This document shows positions 5,402 through 64,000 of a DNA stretch of 64,000 nucleotides, piece by piece. How positions within the stretch are numbered: the first letter of the stretch is position 1; each line of letters opens with the position of its first letter. The notes below the pieces were generated by a model that was not told the DNA's origin, did not search any database, and saw nothing but the letters and a program-made list of their open reading frames with translations. A program made the position numbers and the translations under genes. Source of the DNA: Promethearchaeota archaeon (GTDB lineage Archaea; Asgardarchaeota; Lokiarchaeia; Sigyniarchaeales; SOKP01); the NCBI GenBank assembly GCA_019057865.1, contig JAHLWP010000015.1, forward strand, positions 1 through 64,000, given 5' to 3'.

Positions 5402-5956
5402 ATGACTAAAACTCAGGAATTTGGATTTAAGATATCTATAATAGGAGATGGAGGGGTCGGTAAAACATCTTTAATAAAAAAATTTACGAAAGGGACCTTT
5501 GAAAAAGATTATATTAAGACTATAGGTGCCCAATTTTCGAGATATGATAAAGAAATTAATGGGGATGCTATTAATTTAGTATTTTGGGACATAGCTGGCC
5601 AAGATGATTTTAATTTTTTACACCCTTTATTTTATAAAGAAAGTAGAGCCAGTATTATTGTATGTAGCCTTGAAGCAAATGATTTAGGTAATAATAGCTT
5701 TCTTCATATAAAGAATTGGTATAATGAATTAAGCAAGTATTGTGGCGATATTCCTGTAGTTTTATTTGCCAATAAATTTGATTTGGTGAATGAAAATAAT
5801 TTAAATGAACTTGAAATACAAGAAATTGTCAAAGAATATAATTTTCTTGGATACTATATTACTTCTGCAAAAACAGGACAGGGAGTAATAGAAGCATTTA
5901 ATGCAATTATTGAAAAATTATATTATAAATATAAAAAGTTATCCTCCCAGGAATAA
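5402..5956 (+). CDS. Rab/Ras-like small GTPase
   Basis: G1 GDGGVGKTS, G2 YIKTIG, G3 WDIAGQ, G4 NKFD, G5 TSAK; no C-terminal prenylation Cys. Confidence 0.95.
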   Translation: MTKTQEFGFKISIIGDGGVGKTSLIKKFTKGTFEKDYIKTIGAQFSRYDKEINGDAINLVFWDIAGQDDFNFLHPLFYKESRASIIVCSLEANDLGNNSFLHIKNWYNELSKYCGDIPVVLFANKFDLVNENNLNELEIQEIVKEYNFLGYYITSAKTGQGVIEAFNAIIEKLYYKYKKLSSQE

Positions 5957-17112: not shown

Positions 17113-18255
17113 CTAAGAAAACTGTAATAGAAATTTATTTCCTAAATTTACATTATCCAAATATTTTTTTGCAACTTTTAAATATTTTAAAGCTTGTTCT
17201 TTTGGTGTAATAGGTAAATCCCTCATTTGGTAGTCACCGTGAAACACTAAAAGGCTATAGGGGATTTCAGGATTTATCTCACTAATAAATCTCGCAATTA
17301 ACTCCACTTCTTCATGGTTAACATAACCCGGAACCATTAAAGTACAACCGCTCATTTCTGGCATTTCTTTTCCCCTGGTTCCAAAATAATCTTCAGCCAA
17401 GAATTTGAAATTTTTAAGAGTTCTGTTATTACTGATACCACATAATGCTAAATTTAATTTCTCATCGAAACTTTTTAAATCGAATTTAATATTTCCGCCC
17501 GTTTTTATTGCGATTTTCATGCATTTTTCTACTAAATCTTGTCTTCCACTTCCATTCCATTCCCAACATATACGCATTATCCTCTTAGGGTCTTGCTTTT
17601 CGATTTTCTTTAATATTAGTTCTGCTAAACTTATAGTAAAAGGTAATTGCACCTCCGGAGTACCTCCAAAATAGCATAGACAAGTAATATTTTCATTCTT
17701 TACTATTTGATTTGCTAAAAATTCACTATCAAATAGATTTCGCTTCTGAAATTGCTTATGACTACTATTCTGGCAGAAGAGACACGAATACGAACATCCA
17801 TACAGGAAAGCAGCATAACTATATGTCCCATATTCAGGTTCATTATAGTCAGAATATTCAGAATAACCTGCTGAAGTGCCTGCAGGACAAAACCATGCAT
17901 TACAACAATTGGTTGGATTCGCATCTAAATAACTATGTATATAACCCTTAGATTTTGTAGGAAAAGGCAAATCTCCTTTCTTGTTTTTTTGAATATTTCT
18001 CAAACCACAATAGCTTACATCATTCTCAGAAAGGGAACATTCATTTATACAATAATTACATTTCAATTTAATATTTGGTCTTTCTGCTTTAGGAGGTTTA
18101 TCGGGCAAATCTACAAGTTGTCTAACCTGTTTATGAACTGATAGGATATGAGCTTTAATTAAATTCCAATCTTCTTCTAAAATACAGTTCCTACATACCT
18201 GTAGAACCTCAGAGATTAGCCTATCGGTTTTTCCACAAAAATTACAAGTTCCCAT
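17113..18255 (-). CDS. Radical SAM enzyme (PflA/AmmeMemoRadiSam-like) with N-terminal Cys clusters
   Basis: GCSYSCLFCQN (CX3CX2C), YFGGTP, KFDLK, N-terminal CxxC pairs. Confidence 0.85.
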   Translation of the reverse strand: MGTCNFCGKTDRLISEVLQVCRNCILEEDWNLIKAHILSVHKQVRQLVDLPDKPPKAERPNIKLKCNYCINECSLSENDVSYCGLRNIQKNKKGDLPFPTKSKGYIHSYLDANPTNCCNAWFCPAGTSAGYSEYSDYNEPEYGTYSYAAFLYGCSYSCLFCQNSSHKQFQKRNLFDSEFLANQIVKNENITCLCYFGGTPEVQLPFTISLAELILKKIEKQDPKRIMRICWEWNGSGRQDLVEKCMKIAIKTGGNIKFDLKSFDEKLNLALCGISNNRTLKNFKFLAEDYFGTRGKEMPEMSGCTLMVPGYVNHEEVELIARFISEINPEIPYSLLVFHGDYQMRDLPITPKEQALKYLKVAKKYLDNVNLGNKFLLQFS

Positions 18256-18917: not shown

Positions 18918-19045
18918 TAGTGATCACATATATATAAATAATTAAAATATATAAATAACCTAAAGTCAATATAGGTATAGAGAAATTAAATTAAAATTAA
19001 TTGTTTAATTTCGAGACAAAAAATTATAGAAAAGAATTGAGATTT

Positions 19046-19441
19046 ATGTCAAAAAAACCTGTTGTGGTAGTGGTAGACGATGAGCCAGATATTCTCAAAC
19101 TCACAAAGAAATTCTTGGATTTAGGAGAAATTGAAACAATAACTTGTGTCAACGCCAAAGAAGCTATTAAAACGATAGAGGAGAAATATAATAAAATTTC
19201 TTTGGTTCTCCTAGATATTATGATGCCAGGGCAATCTGGATACAGTGTGCTTGAGGAAGTAAAAAATAATGACAGATATAACCATATTAAGGTCGTTCTA
19301 TTCACAGTTAAAAGTTTTAATGAGGATATCCAGAAGGGCAAGCGTCTAGGAGCGGATGGATATATCACTAAACCGTTTTCAGGAAAAGAACTACTAAAAT
19401 ATATACAAAATATGTTAACTGAAAAAGAAGAAACTAACTAG
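19046..19441 (+). CDS. Stand-alone response regulator receiver domain
   Basis: VVDDE, LLDIMMPGQSG, FT, YITKPF; ATG at 19046 preferred. Confidence 0.92.
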   Translation: MSKKPVVVVVDDEPDILKLTKKFLDLGEIETITCVNAKEAIKTIEEKYNKISLVLLDIMMPGQSGYSVLEEVKNNDRYNHIKVVLFTVKSFNEDIQKGKRLGADGYITKPFSGKELLKYIQNMLTEKEETN

Positions 19442-20418: not shown

Positions 20419-21777
20419 ATGTCTACAAATATAGTTGTAATAGGCATGGGATATGTAGGTATCCCAATGGCGGCTTTGTTAGCAGATGTAGATGATTTTT
20501 ATGTTACCGGAATTCAAAGAAGATCGAAAAGATCAGGATGGAAAATAGATTGGCTCAATAATGGGAAGAATCCATTCGAGGGAGAGGAACCAGGGTTAGA
20601 TGAGCTGATAGATAGAGTCGTAAAGAGCGGAAAATTTAAGGTTACAGATAAATATGATGATGTTGATGATGCTGATTTTATTCTCATTGATGTACAAACA
20701 CCAGTTGATTTAGACTCTAAAATTCCTCGATATGAATCATTAGAAGAAGTTACTAAAAAAATCTCAAAACATTTAAAAAAAGGAGTTACAGTCATAATTG
20801 AATCCACAGTAGCACCAGGGACAACTGATAATATAATCCAACCGAGATTAGAGGAAGGGAGTGGGTTTAAAAGAGGACAGGATTTTTATTTAGTATTTTC
20901 ATTCGAACGAGTTATGCCAGGAAAAATGCTCGAATACATAACTGATATGGAAAGAGTGATTGGAGGAGGATGTGATAAAGCAAACAACAAAGCGAAATCC
21001 TTATATGAGAAGGTAGTTGAGAAGGATATAAGATATACTGACACATTAACTGCAGAATTAACGAAATGCATTGAAAATACTTATAGGGATGTTAATATTG
21101 CTTTTGCTAATGAAATGGCATTGTTATGTGAAGATTTTGATAGAGATATATTCGAAATTATAGAATTGATTAACCAAAGGCATGATAGAATGATGCATTA
21201 TCCTGGTTCTGGTGTAGGTGGTCACTGTCTTACGAAAGATCCTCACTTACTCGAGTATGGTCATCGTACATACACAGAACATAAATATAATTCTGATATC
21301 TTATTAAAAGCAAGAGAATTAAACGATTTCATGCCTCGCCACATGGTAGAGTTGATGGAGGATACGTTTAGAGAATCTCGCAGATTAGTAGATAATATTA
21401 AAGTAGTTCTTTTAGGAGTTTCTTATAAGGCAAATACAGATGACACAAGGAATACCCCTACTGAGAACATAGTTAAAGTATTAAAAAGCAGGTACCATTC
21501 TCATAATATAACTTTTATAGCACACGATCCATACGTTAAAGAGCGAGAATACAAGGAAACTGAACTAACCGATGATTTTGATAAGGCAGTTTCCGGCGCA
21601 GATGTTCTCATTTTTGCTACAAATCACAATGAATATTATAATATTGATCTCGAGGATCTTAAGAGGAAAGTTAGAACACCAATTATTATTGATGGTAGAA
21701 ATATTTTTAAAAAAAAATTAGTTGAACAAAAAGGTTTTATCTATCGTAAAGTTGGAGAAGGACCTAAAAAACCTTAA
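20419..21777 (+). CDS. Nucleotide-sugar dehydrogenase (UDP-ManNAc/UDP-GlcNAc dehydrogenase family)
   Basis: GMGYVG, ESTVAPGTT, K..EN.YRDVNIAFANE, GVGGHCL, YK.NTDDTR, DGRN. Confidence 0.9.
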   Translation: MSTNIVVIGMGYVGIPMAALLADVDDFYVTGIQRRSKRSGWKIDWLNNGKNPFEGEEPGLDELIDRVVKSGKFKVTDKYDDVDDADFILIDVQTPVDLDSKIPRYESLEEVTKKISKHLKKGVTVIIESTVAPGTTDNIIQPRLEEGSGFKRGQDFYLVFSFERVMPGKMLEYITDMERVIGGGCDKANNKAKSLYEKVVEKDIRYTDTLTAELTKCIENTYRDVNIAFANEMALLCEDFDRDIFEIIELINQRHDRMMHYPGSGVGGHCLTKDPHLLEYGHRTYTEHKYNSDILLKARELNDFMPRHMVELMEDTFRESRRLVDNIKVVLLGVSYKANTDDTRNTPTENIVKVLKSRYHSHNITFIAHDPYVKEREYKETELTDDFDKAVSGADVLIFATNHNEYYNIDLEDLKRKVRTPIIIDGRNIFKKKLVEQKGFIYRKVGEGPKKP

Positions 21778-21832
21778 AATGTATTAGTATATCTTATAGA
21801 ACTTGTAATTAAAGCTTTGCTTTATCGATTAT

Positions 21833-21970
21833 TCATTCTTTTTCCTTTAATTTTTCTTCTTGGTGCTTTAATTTTAATGCTCGTCTATGCCACATGTTAA
21901 TTAATGAACAACTAGTATAATAGCAATCATCATCAAATCCCAAATCTAAATAATCTTCTTTTTCATCCAT
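21833..21970 (-). CDS. 45-aa microprotein, Cys-containing putative paralogue of the upstream CxxU ORF
   Basis: MDEKEDYLDLGFDDDCYYTSCSLINMWHRRALKLKHQEEKLKEKE*; AGGGT upstream; not in the ORF track. Confidence 0.55.
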   Translation of the reverse strand: MDEKEDYLDLGFDDDCYYTSCSLINMWHRRALKLKHQEEKLKEKE

Positions 21971-22175
21971 CTTATGATACCCTTTAAATTCTTATAAATT
22001 TCAACATAAATAAGGATTAAAAAAGTACTGCTTATAAAAAATAGAAGAAGAATGATTATTATTAATTATTAATAAATAGGTTAGTGTTGAATAAATTTAA
22101 GAGTATTGATCTCTCAAGTTCTTGCGGAACTTTAAAATTAAATCCTAACATTTAATGATTTAATTCTTTGAGATG

Positions 22176-22325
22176 TTAATTATTTAGTTTTAATGATTTT
22201 TTGTTGTGACGTCGTTTTTTTATATTTTGAATACAGTTTATGATACCATCAATAATGCCTCAGCCTGTACAATACTGTTCTGTTTCATGTTCTGTGCTGT
22301 CTAATTTATTTTTCCATCCAGACAT
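22176..22325 (-). CDS. Candidate 49-aa selenoprotein (CxxU; in-frame TGA at 22262-22260)
   Basis: MSGWKNKLDSTEHETEQYCTG[TGA]GIIDGIINCIQNIKKRRHNKKSLKLNN*; the TGA aligns with Cys21 of the 21970 ORF. Confidence 0.5.
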
Positions 22326-22485
22326 ATTCATCCATTGCTTCAAATATCTTTTAATTTAAAATATTAATAAGAAAATAAATAGATTGTTGTTTTAAATAAT
22401 AAGATTTTGAGAGAAGAATAAAAAAAAAGATAATATAACAATAAATATTTAAATTAATTAAAAAAAACGGTTGAAATATTGAAAA

Positions 22486-22764
22486 ATGGGTAGTATTAAA
22501 GATTTAAAGAATGAGCTTTCAGAAATGAGAAAAAGTATGGAAAAAATGACAGCTGAATTACATGAAACAAATTTGGTTATCCGCGACTCGTTAAAATTAA
22601 CTTCAGAAACTATTAAAGAAATGAGTGAAAATTTCACTAAAGCATTAGAAGATGTTTTGAATCAGATGTCTGATTTAACAATTCAGATGAATATAAAAGA
22701 TACAATTCTTAAAACGCTGGGAATTGATGGTATGATTCCAGATTTTTTAAAAAAAAAAAAATAA
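22486..22764 (+). CDS. Small coiled-coil hypothetical protein
   Basis: Heptad-like pattern, ATG start. Confidence 0.7.
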   Translation: MGSIKDLKNELSEMRKSMEKMTAELHETNLVIRDSLKLTSETIKEMSENFTKALEDVLNQMSDLTIQMNIKDTILKTLGIDGMIPDFLKKKK

Positions 22765-23080: not shown

Positions 23081-23284
23081 ATGACAGAAAGGGCTCCTCC
23101 CTTATGTTATATATGTGGTAAAAGCTGTACAGATTCAGTAGAAGATTTATATTATTGTATTTGTGATGCTGCTATTTGCCATAGTTGCATAAATACTGTC
23201 AAAAAAAATGATAAAACTTGGGTTTGTCCACATTGTAAGGAAGCCAATGATTTAGAAAAAAGCAAGTTATTTAGATTAACTTGA
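23081..23284 (+). CDS. Stand-alone C4C4 RING-like zinc finger protein
   Basis: C-x2-C-x13-C-x-C-x4-C-x2-C-x12-C-x2-C. Confidence 0.75.
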   Translation: MTERAPPLCYICGKSCTDSVEDLYYCICDAAICHSCINTVKKNDKTWVCPHCKEANDLEKSKLFRLT

Positions 23285-62166: not shown

Positions 62167-64000
62167 ATAAAAGAGAATAACATCAATATAATTAAAACTG
62201 GTTGTTGTCATGACTGTGGTGGACGATGTGTTCTTAGAGTACATGTTAAAGATGGTAAAATCATAAGAATTGAAACTGACAATGGAGAAGAACCTCAATT
62301 AAGAGCCTGTGTACGTGGAAGAGCCTATAGACAAAGAGTTTATTCCCCAGATAGACTAAGATATCCTCTGCGCCGTAGTGGTGAACGAGGTGAAGATAAA
62401 TTTGAACGGATTTCATGGGATGAAGCTCTTGAAATAGTCGCTTCCAAACTTATAGAAATTAAGGAAAAATATGGTAATTCCGCTATACTATTGGTTCCAG
62501 GTGGTGGAAACCAGGGGATGATTCATGGAATCATACCAATTGCTATAATGTTACATCAAATTGGAGGATATACTAGAATGTGGGGAGCTCCTTCATATGA
62601 AGGGGCATTATTTGCCTCGATGGCGACTTATGGAACAATGATGACTGGTAATGCGCGTGAAGATCTATTAAATTCAAAACTCATTATTATGTGGGGCTGG
62701 AATCCTGCTAACACAATTTGGGAACCTGGAACAAGTCTAATGTTAGCTAAAACTAAAGAGAAAGGAATTAAAATAATAGCTATAGATCCTATCTTTACAG
62801 ATTCAGCGGCAATACTTGCTAATCAATGGATTCCAATTCGACCAGGTACTGATACGGCAATATTAATTGCGATGGCTTACACAATTATTAAAGAAAATCT
62901 TCAGGATCAAGCCTTTTTAGATAAATATACTGTTGGATTTGATAAATTCAAGGAATATGTAATGGGAGAAGAAGACGGTGTTGAAAAAACACCACAATGG
63001 GCAGAGAAAATTACATCTGTACCTTCAGAGGTTATTGAAGACTTAGCACGGGAATATGCCACTTCTAAACCAGCGGCTCTTATAGCAGGGTGGGGTCCTG
63101 CGAGAACTGCCTTTGGAGAACAATATTCCCGCGCTGCTAATGTGCTTTGTGCTATTACAGGGAACATTGGAATTAATGGGGGTTATGCCTCTGGTTTTAT
63201 GAGAGCATATTATAGTCGTGAGCGGATAGTACCTGGAGGGAAAAAAACGAGAGATATTTCTACTATAGAAGAAATGCCAAAAAAACCAAGATTACAAGAT
63301 AATCCGGTTGATTTTAGGGCTCCACCTCGTAAAGATGCTTTATATAAAATAAAAGGTGGGACAAATCCTGCAAACACTAGAATTCACTATAATGATTATT
63401 ATGAAGCAATTCTACAAGGAAAAAAAGCAGGTTACCCTGCTGATATTAAAATGGCTTATATTGCAGGAACAAACCGATTAAACCAGTTTAGTAATGTAAA
63501 TAAAGGTGTTAAAGCTTTTAAATCACTTGAATTTATAGTTATTCATGAACAATTTTTGACACCTACAGCGAAATTTGCTGACATTATTTTGCCAGTAAAT
63601 ACTTTCATGGAACGTAATGATGCTGCTGTCCCTTGGCTTGGTTCTCCTTATTATATTTATTTGAATAAAGCTATTGATTCCATGTATGAATCAAAATCTG
63701 ATCTAGAAATATGCCGGGAGCTTTTAAAAAGAATGGGTATTAAATCAAGTCTTTTAGATCTGAATGAGGATCAAATATTAAGGCTATTTATAGCTCCACG
63801 AAAGGACATTAAAAATTATAATAAAATGAGAAGAGATGGTTATTATAAAGTTAAAGTTGAGGAGCCATTTGTAGCATTTAAAGATCAAATAGAGGATCCT
63901 GAGAACAAACCCTTTCCTACTTTATCAGGCAAAATTGAAATATATTGTGAACATATAGCAGAAAAAAATATTCCCTTAATGCCACCAATTCCAAAATATT
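62167..64000 (+). CDS. Second DmsA-like Mo/W-bisPGD oxidoreductase, partial (runs off window); ATA start inferred
   Basis: TGCCHDCGGRC...RACVRG, DRLRYP, RISWDEA, WGWNP, PGTD, TPTAKFADIILP, SGKIE; in-frame TAA at 62143-62145; first TTG only at 62491. Confidence 0.9.
   Translation, partial: MKENNINIIKTGCCHDCGGRCVLRVHVKDGKIIRIETDNGEEPQLRACVRGRAYRQRVYSPDRLRYPLRRSGERGEDKFERISWDEALEIVASKLIEIKEKYGNSAILLVPGGGNQGMIHGIIPIAIMLHQIGGYTRMWGAPSYEGALFASMATYGTMMTGNAREDLLNSKLIIMWGWNPANTIWEPGTSLMLAKTKEKGIKIIAIDPIFTDSAAILANQWIPIRPGTDTAILIAMAYTIIKENLQDQAFLDKYTVGFDKFKEYVMGEEDGVEKTPQWAEKITSVPSEVIEDLAREYATSKPAALIAGWGPARTAFGEQYSRAANVLCAITGNIGINGGYASGFMRAYYSRERIVPGGKKTRDISTIEEMPKKPRLQDNPVDFRAPPRKDALYKIKGGTNPANTRIHYNDYYEAILQGKKAGYPADIKMAYIAGTNRLNQFSNVNKGVKAFKSLEFIVIHEQFLTPTAKFADIILPVNTFMERNDAAVPWLGSPYYIYLNKAIDSMYESKSDLEICRELLKRMGIKSSLLDLNEDQILRLFIAPRKDIKNYNKMRRDGYYKVKVEEPFVAFKDQIEDPENKPFPTLSGKIEIYCEHIAEKNIPLMPPIPKY

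Follow-up and report, generated by a model that had tools for sequence, protein, structure and literature searches.

Tandem microgenes of Promethearchaeota predicted to encode two families of small selenoproteins, with a putative core-less variant of the lokiSECIS element

We analyzed a stretch of 64,000 nucleotides (positions 1 to 64,000 of contig JAHLWP010000015.1; the window) from an uncultured Promethearchaeota archaeon, represented solely by a 4.26-Mb metagenome-assembled genome (GCA_019057865.1, G000 in our genome set) that is 99.7% complete. Between two plus-strand genes, a gap of 708 bp contains two small open reading frames (ORFs) on the minus strand, ORF1 and ORF2. The original prediction, made from the sequence alone, had pointed to this tandem pair in a gap of about 700 bp, and had proposed that an in-frame TGA of ORF1 encodes selenocysteine (Sec) and that ORF2 is its Cys-containing paralogue. 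Both ORFs lie exactly where it placed them. We consider it highly probable that the two are paralogous microgenes of Promethearchaeota, of which ORF1 would incorporate Sec at UGA codon 22 by means of a core-less Sec insertion sequence (SECIS) element on its 3' side, and ORF2 would now encode Cys; a redox function is suggested for the products. The features of the locus are as follows.

20419-21777, plus strand: UDP-glucose/GDP-mannose dehydrogenase gene, the convergent gene bordering the gap
21778..21832, minus strand: 3' flank of ORF2, where the second SECIS that relatives carry is absent (no match to the covariance model R1)
21833..21970, minus strand: ORF2, family B gene in its Cys form, 45 codons (ATG at 21970, stop TGA at 21835-21833)
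21910-21908, minus strand: codon 21 of ORF2, TGT (Cys); TGA here in most relatives
21971..22103, minus strand: spacer between the SECIS element of ORF1 and ORF2, with an A/T-rich TATA-like box at ~21991-22000
22104..22178, minus strand: putative SECIS element of ORF1, beginning at the stop codon (covariance model R1)
22176..22325, minus strand: ORF1, predicted family A selenoprotein gene, 49 codons (ATG at 22325, stop TAA at 22178-22176)
22260..22262, minus strand: TGA codon of ORF1 within the C-T-G-U-G motif, predicted to be read as Sec (residue 22)
22271-22269, minus strand: Cys19 codon of ORF1
22486-22764, plus strand: gene for a 92-aa coiled-coil protein, the divergent gene bordering the gap

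ORF1 has an alternative in-frame ATG at 22331, and its orthologues start at M-S-E-W-K, which corresponds to 22325. The TATA-like box precedes the start of ORF2 by about 25 nt, and TTTATAA-type motifs are similarly placed in relatives, so that ORF2 probably has its own promoter. The DNA here is 24% G+C. TGA is an ordinary stop codon elsewhere in the window, as had been stated: it ends 7 of the 38 stop-to-stop frames that are 200 codons or longer, in addition to ORF2 itself.

The TGA of ORF1 is conserved in relatives. Searches with tblastn retrieved full-length ORF1 orthologues with exactly one in-frame TGA from 22 of the 24 congeneric genomes, and all 23 orthologues in our alignment have TGA at the Sec column. 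Invariant positions of this family (family A) are M-S-x-W-K, G-U, D and I, followed by a basic tail; none of its members has a Met after the TGA. A profile of the family (A2) matched 103 of the 135 genomes of the same GTDB family, representing 10 of its 13 genera, and every one of the 103 matches at E < 1e-4 contains one TGA. No Cys form was found among these 103 family-level matches or among the 20 database proteins that match family A, and the family appears to be obligately Sec. The 20 database proteins all have "W" at the Sec column; because this search covered proteins of 25-102 residues only, a longer fused form could exist.

The codon aligned with Cys21 of ORF2 is also TGA in relatives. 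The profile of this second family (A3; family B) matched 64 of the 161 genomes of the class, all inside the same GTDB family. Among the 66 copies in these genomes, 62 have TGA and four have TGT, so that about 94% are of the Sec type. The original view of ORF2 therefore holds in part: it is a Cys form and a probable paralogue of ORF1, but it belongs to a separate family whose members are themselves nearly all of the Sec type. The four TGT forms occur in the genome analyzed here, in two sister species (G097 and G098) and in G022. ORF2 is 84-93% identical among the first three (93% to a sister-species copy). The two separate TGT lineages, the G000/G097/G098 clade and G022, point to at least two independent changes from Sec to Cys. 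Family A occurs without family B in many genomes. For instance, in genus g22 family A is present in 38 and family B in 13 of 42 genomes.

The original prediction had singled out Trp, Arg or Gly at this column as signs against Sec. A codon for Trp, Arg or Gly occurs there in none of the genomes; the sole sense codon is the TGT of the two ORF2 lineages. In public metagenome protein calls, the residue at the Sec position is Trp in P0001, P0003, P0005, P0006 and P0008-P0027. We traced two of these entries to their contigs (P0021 of family A and P0001 of family B), and in both the W is a TGA translated under genetic code 4. The Trp at this position is an annotation artifact that hides selenoproteins. 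Among 1.84 billion representative proteins, searched without a limit on length, seven match family B, all of 26-51 aa: four with TGA read as W, two with Cys (P0002 and P0004) and one C-terminal fragment. The fragment, P0007, is exactly the C-terminal part of a family B protein, in which a Met comes two codons after the TGA. No longer or fused protein with the family B motif was found among these 1.84 billion representatives.

Within this genome, the similarity between ORF1 and ORF2 is undetectable (a tblastn search with ORF1 misses ORF2), and the initial caution that their short alignment could be due to chance was fair at that level. The matter was settled by profiles built across genomes. 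In the profile-profile alignment of A2 and A3 (E 3e-5, probability 73%, 43 columns) the two Sec columns are aligned, so that the TGA of ORF1 stands opposite the Cys of ORF2 exactly as proposed. Families A and B are probably ancient tandem paralogues, as judged from these alignments, and the two genes occur in tandem in 64 genomes.

We estimated the ratio of non-synonymous to synonymous substitution rates (dN/dS, pooled Nei-Gojobori over aligned orthologues) on both sides of the TGA. For ORF1 the ratio is 0.27 before the Sec codon and 0.40 after it; for ORF2 it is 0.13 before the Sec column and 0.34 after it. In both families variation is highest at third codon positions and all indels are multiples of three nucleotides, and amino acids downstream of the TGA are conserved (e.g., I-I-D-G and M-W-Y-R-R). 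The pattern reads as that of one translated frame running through the TGA. Conservation on both sides of the TGA and a column that alternates between TGA and TGY had been named in the original prediction as signs in favor of Sec.

Every Sec-encoding copy is followed by a structured RNA of 70-75 nt, which starts at the stop codon or, in many ORF1 orthologues, overlaps the last five codons. A 3' SECIS had been expected in an organism of the Lokiarchaeota type, and the position of this RNA after the stop codons agrees with that expectation. The RNA folds as a three-way junction consisting of a 5-bp outer helix (U-C-U-C on the 5' strand and G-A-G-A on the 3' strand), a main hairpin (~10 bp, 12-nt apical loop), and a second hairpin of 6 bp whose loop is of the C-G-C-A-A type (CGCAA). 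Among the 73 copies that R1 identified in the fetched loci, 92% of the cells are paired and 16 of the 21 base pairs show compensatory changes, in an alignment that was fitted to R1, which favors the structure somewhat. Shuffled and slid controls gave pairing and covariation far below those of the real element. All copies have AAA and the terminal G in the main loop; of the two bases before this G, the U is present in 71 and the A in 72 of the 73 copies.

The element of ORF1 scores 79.5 bits with R1 and is the sole strong match in the 4.26-Mb genome; a 27-bit match in a coding region on contig C87 was rejected as chance. The minimum free energy (MFE) fold of the ORF1 element has the same topology as that of the VhuU SECIS. 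A scan of positions 21700-22500 against Rfam, with E-values up to 10, gave two chance-level matches and no SECIS family.

After the Cys-type ORF2 of this genome there is no R1 match, and the flank is ~60 nt shorter than in relatives. G097 and G098 have the same arrangement, with the element missing after the Cys-form ORF2; G022, which has the other Cys form, retains its element. In this lineage, ORF2 has recently turned Cys and lost its putative SECIS. In genus g13 (locus L106 of G056, minus strand), only 20 nt separate ORF1 from ORF2, and a single element follows ORF2; the pair would form a two-gene unit with one common Sec insertion signal. The accessible text of PMC4989117 describes a similar case, in which the HdrA-VhuD pairs of Loki have one common SECIS.

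In one closed genome (G006, CP070831.1), a second locus at ~188.2-193.5 kb (L039) contains two additional ORF2 copies of the Sec type, separated by ~1 kb and each followed by a SECIS. Family B has therefore been duplicated locally at this locus. A third SECIS match in the same locus is at L039:1808-1881.

For comparison, we searched the genome with a strict lokiSECIS pattern (AUGA, a 9-bp stem, an 11-nt loop with an A-rich start and a G at its end, then GA or AA). The pattern has five matches in this genome, two of which follow the VhuD and VhuU genes. In the SECIS elements that follow VhuD, VhuU and both SelD genes, a 9-bp stem is closed by an 11-nt loop that contains a run of A and ends in UAG, an architecture that agrees with the accessible description of lokiSECIS (Mariotti 2016, PMC4989117). 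Inspection of these sequences revealed, after the main hairpin, a small hairpin with a GCAA or GCGA loop, and an outer helix around both. Most of the strict-pattern elements also carry a small hairpin of the GCAA/GCGA type within an outer helix. The MFE folds recovered the full three-way layout for the VhuU and C37 elements only, and part of it for the others. This extra small hairpin goes unmentioned in the accessible lokiSECIS descriptions of PMC4989117 and PMC11227280. The elements used in the comparison are located as follows.

C54 ~17250-17335: VhuU SECIS
C23 ~5830-5920: VhuD SECIS
C37 ~63540-63625: strict-pattern SECIS
C30 72491-72570 and 73847-73925: the two SelD SECIS elements

The microprotein element and lokiSECIS are alike in their place just 3' of the stop codon, in a main stem of ~9-11 bp and in a loop of 11-12 nt with an A-rich start and an A-G end. 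With its 10 paired columns and 12-nt loop, the microprotein element falls within the stem and loop definition of lokiSECIS, and in every copy inspected it starts no more than five codons from the stop. The two differ in the core. An AUGA...GA core is reported for every lokiSECIS described in the accessible parts of PMC4989117 and PMC11227280, and the canonical elements of the same genome do have the AUGA core, whereas no copy of the microprotein element has AUGA on the 5' side of its main stem or GA on the 3' side, the junction being A-A instead. Because its topology and loop motif are those of lokiSECIS but AUGA/GA is absent, we interpret the element as a core-less variant of lokiSECIS, without the kink-turn core, and infer its activity from position, conservation and resemblance. 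A putative SECIS function is supported by its placement and conservation, and by the fact that it was lost once Sec had changed to Cys in this clade. Published models, built around the AUGA_GA core, would probably miss this variant. We also considered a kink-turn in other registers (AUGA before the second hairpin in some ORF1-type copies, UGA in ORF2-type copies) and rejected it because the bases concerned vary between copies (AUGA, ACGA, AAGA, AGAA) or else form covarying Watson-Crick pairs.

The presence of Sec machinery, which the original prediction presupposed, is borne out by the rest of the genome. There are two SelD genes, each with an in-frame TGA, and genes for SepSecS (488 bits), SelB (245 bits) and a PSTK homologue. 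A tRNA-Sec of 117 nt with a UCA anticodon stands beside SepSecS, and SelB is ~3 kb away (C41:173829-179405 for this cluster). The tRNA has a 31-nt insert in the T-arm region, which is possibly an intron; ARAGORN found no tRNA-Sec. Judging by these homologues, the machinery for Sec synthesis and insertion appears complete.

AlphaFold2 models made with the family alignments predict a helix at residues 23-47 of ORF1, directly after Sec22, and at residues 10-44 of ORF2, where the predicted local distance difference test (pLDDT) score is high only from about the Sec column on (block means of 89-95 over residues 21-40). In both proteins the N-terminal arm is acidic and modeled with low confidence. 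In the alignments, the helix is amphipathic over its first four turns and strongly basic thereafter. A Cys is always found 3-8 residues upstream of the Sec. These models suggest a minimal selenol/thiol redox microprotein with Sec at the N-terminus of a helix, a placement that resembles that of CxxC/CxxU redox centers. Neither ORF1 nor ORF2 has relatives in Pfam, in PDB sequence profiles or among ESM Atlas features; the best PDB match, the CxxCH region of a cytochrome c6 (E 0.5), was treated as chance.

Several known selenoproteins share single traits with the two families. In the Rdx family (SelW, SelT, SelH and SelV) a C-x-x-U-G motif places Sec at the start of a helix, and SelH has a basic tail. 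C-x-x-U occurs in most members of family A, three of which have C-x7-U instead, and family B has C-x4-U. Rdx proteins have a thioredoxin-like beta-alpha-beta fold and at least ~85 residues, whereas the microproteins have 45-57 residues that are predicted to form one helix and a disordered acidic arm; AlphaFold2 predicts helices only, and no thioredoxin-like beta-alpha-beta fold was found in them. The Prx-like, DsbA-like and AhpF-N-like selenoproteins listed for Asgard archaea (PMC11227280) have redox-type Sec/Cys motifs and come from the same phylum, but are full thioredoxin-fold domains, recognized through homology to bacterial families. The homologues of the microproteins are confined to one GTDB family.

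Another relevant case is VhuU, the small Sec-containing subunit of the F420-non-reducing hydrogenase of methanococci and Lokiarchaeia. Like the microproteins, it is a selenoprotein of ~50 residues with a single Sec and a SECIS right after the stop codon (PMC4989117), and the VhuU element of this genome shares the three-way-junction layout and the apical-loop motif with theirs. It differs in being the split-off C-terminus of the large subunit of a [NiFeSe] hydrogenase, with the nickel-binding motif D-x-U-x2-C-x2-H. The hydrogenase motif D-[PC]-U-x2-C-x2-H is absent from both microprotein alignments and present in the true VhuU on C54. Unlike VhuU, the microproteins are not encoded beside hydrogenase genes, and their SECIS is without AUGA...GA.

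We propose that UGA22 of ORF1 would be decoded as Sec by tRNA-Sec(UCA) and the archaeal SelB. The signal for this decoding would be the SECIS that starts at the ORF1 stop codon, ~85 nt downstream of the UGA. In the ancestor of the genome analyzed here and the two sister species, the UGA of ORF2 would have mutated to UGU, and the SECIS after ORF2 would then have been lost because the Cys codon made it unneeded; the Cys-form protein would have stayed under purifying selection. The most likely chemistry would be a reversible selenenylsulfide (Se-S) bond between the upstream Cys and the Sec. The helix would serve for docking onto a partner or for oligomerization, and the proteins would act as thiol/selenol redox microproteins of a minimal type or as redox sensors.

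Several observations weigh against this proposal. The decoding of the ORF1 UGA as Sec is predicted from the comparison of sequences, and the genomes compared are kin, so the counts overstate the number of independent observations. An AUGA precedes the main stem in 0 of the 73 copies of the RNA element, and the junction is A-A in ~90% of them. Two parts of the Sec machinery score low: the PSTK homologue, at 148 bits, is below the curated NCBIfam cut-off, and the tRNA-Sec scores 34.6 bits in Infernal against an Rfam gathering threshold of 47 bits. The redox function rests on the position of the motif and on models of medium confidence (mean pLDDT of 71 and 76), and the spacing between Cys and Sec varies, with C-x2-U in most ORF1 proteins, C-x7-U in three of them and C-x4-U in ORF2.

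This last point bears on the strongest alternative, which accepts the same genes and the same Sec decoding and differs in chemistry. In it, Cys and Sec would be metal ligands (in a dimer, two S and two Se would be available to bind Fe, Ni, Zn, Cu or Hg), or the proteins would carry or store selenium. Each protein has just two conserved chalcogen residues, the amphipathic helices of the two could pair, and the genes are in tandem in 64 genomes, all of which speaks in its favor. A prediction of the ORF2 homodimer scored 0.02 and gave no answer, which is evidence neither for nor against pairing. The spacings of x2, x4 and x7, however, fit a flexible resolving Cys better than a fixed site, neither a His nor a further Cys is conserved, and ORF1 occurs without ORF2 in many genomes. 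We regard metal binding or selenium storage as unlikely, although it deserves more weight than any of the alternatives below.

A second alternative keeps the TGA as a true stop codon, with a peptide of 21 residues or no product at all, and attributes the downstream conservation to the RNA element or to a separate short ORF. Gene callers do end at the TGA, the 3' RNA element is itself conserved, and in family B the Met two codons past the TGA, together with the matching fragment P0007, would suit a separate ORF. This explanation is at odds with the dN/dS values after the TGA, which reflect conservation of amino acids, and with the frame across the TGA, which is intact in every copy inspected with indels of 3n only. 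Moreover, a Met after the TGA is absent from family A, the TGT forms fuse both halves into one uninterrupted ORF, and the structured RNA begins only at the real stop codon. Taken together, a true stop at this position is very improbable.

We give slightly less credence still to the idea that these are selenium-sensing regulatory mini-ORFs that control a neighboring gene and whose peptide is irrelevant. Elsewhere, a short ORF in which one codon is recoded can serve as a sensor. Here, the downstream gene is convergent and none is co-directional, purifying selection acts on the peptide far from the UGA, and the Cys form, which would be unable to sense selenium, is 93% conserved between sister species. 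Leader-peptide and split-gene ideas were likewise rejected, as there is no co-directional downstream gene and no longer family B protein among the 1.84 billion representatives searched. Finally, the 24% G+C, the shortness of the ORFs and their insignificant similarity within the genome might suggest a non-coding small RNA locus or ORFs that arose by chance in AT-rich intergenic DNA, but E-values down to 1e-29 in more than 100 genomes, the substitution bias by codon position and the conserved positions of start, Sec and stop leave such an origin scarcely credible.

We also compared the two families with published Asgard selenoproteins. The accessible text of the Loki study reports five selenoprotein families (PMC4989117), and that of a survey of more than 400 Asgard genomes reports seven, searched by homology to known ones (Huang 2024, PMC11227280); a 2026 review gives the same seven-family list (PMC13188914). 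Families A and B are not among the selenoproteins in the accessible parts of these three sources, and our full-text literature searches returned no paper on these microproteins. The conservation described above strongly supports the reading as selenoproteins, which would be two new families accompanied by a putative core-less SECIS variant. The evidence is evenly balanced as to whether they are the first archaea-specific orphan selenoprotein families, single-helix proteins with Sec at the helix N-terminus, of which family A is apparently obligately Sec, served by a SECIS that has the Loki loop and no kink-turn core.

If the proposal is correct, Sec insertion in Asgard archaea can be independent of the AUGA...GA motif that underlies the "Loki-to-eukaryote SECIS" argument, and homology-based Asgard selenoproteomes, with their seven families, would be substantially under-counted. 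Archaeal selenoproteomes have been considered tiny and almost fully cataloged. Lineage-restricted families, one of them without a Cys form in more than 100 genomes, would call for de novo discovery guided by SECIS elements or by genome comparison, and microproteins are a class that annotation systematically misses. An element that keeps the loop without the core would bear on which parts of the SECIS are recognized in archaeal Sec insertion, and also on the proposed Asgard ancestry of eukaryotic SECIS. Peptides of 45-57 residues are within reach of chemical synthesis, so the chemistry of Sec at a helix start could be tested without culture.

The genome also contains at least two further candidates that are not on the published lists and have canonical SECIS elements. 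One is a 155-aa ORF on the minus strand (C23:88363-88827; locus L112:164-628) with two adjacent in-frame TGA codons (G-C-U-U-E-K) and a lokiSECIS 9 nt after the stop; a paralogue is at C57:15424-15858. Homologues occur in 27 of 31 relatives and in 7 of the 9 genera of the order, and among the 33 matches listed 31 have two TGA codons, the other two being partial. Pfam has no match for this ORF, which is also missing from the seven published Asgard selenoprotein families. Another is a 74-aa ORF on the minus strand (C37:63643-63864; locus L111:194-415), in which G-G-S-U-L-C comes after a predicted membrane helix; 29 nt separate its stop from a canonical lokiSECIS. Pfam gave no significant match to this ORF; TGA-bearing matches were found in 5 of the 31 genomes searched, one of them 81% identical. 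In addition, a hydrophobic ORF of 31 codons on the plus strand (C71 ~18980-19190; locus L113) ends in TGA-TAA, has a canonical lokiSECIS 34 nt downstream and possibly encodes a very small membrane peptide ending in Sec.

The neighborhood of ORF1 and ORF2 is conserved across genera: the pair is flanked by the gene for the 92-aa coiled-coil protein and, on the opposite side, by the convergent UDP-glucose dehydrogenase gene, whose place beside it is kept in 34 of 44 loci from different genera and also on metagenome contigs. A 68-aa membrane protein is encoded in the conserved neighborhood as well. This synteny indicates vertical inheritance and offers no functional clue. The same neighborhood includes, at positions 23081-23284 of the window (plus strand), a 67-aa RING-like zinc-finger protein that is all-Cys (zf-RING_4, E 1.5e-4, a match below the cut-off).

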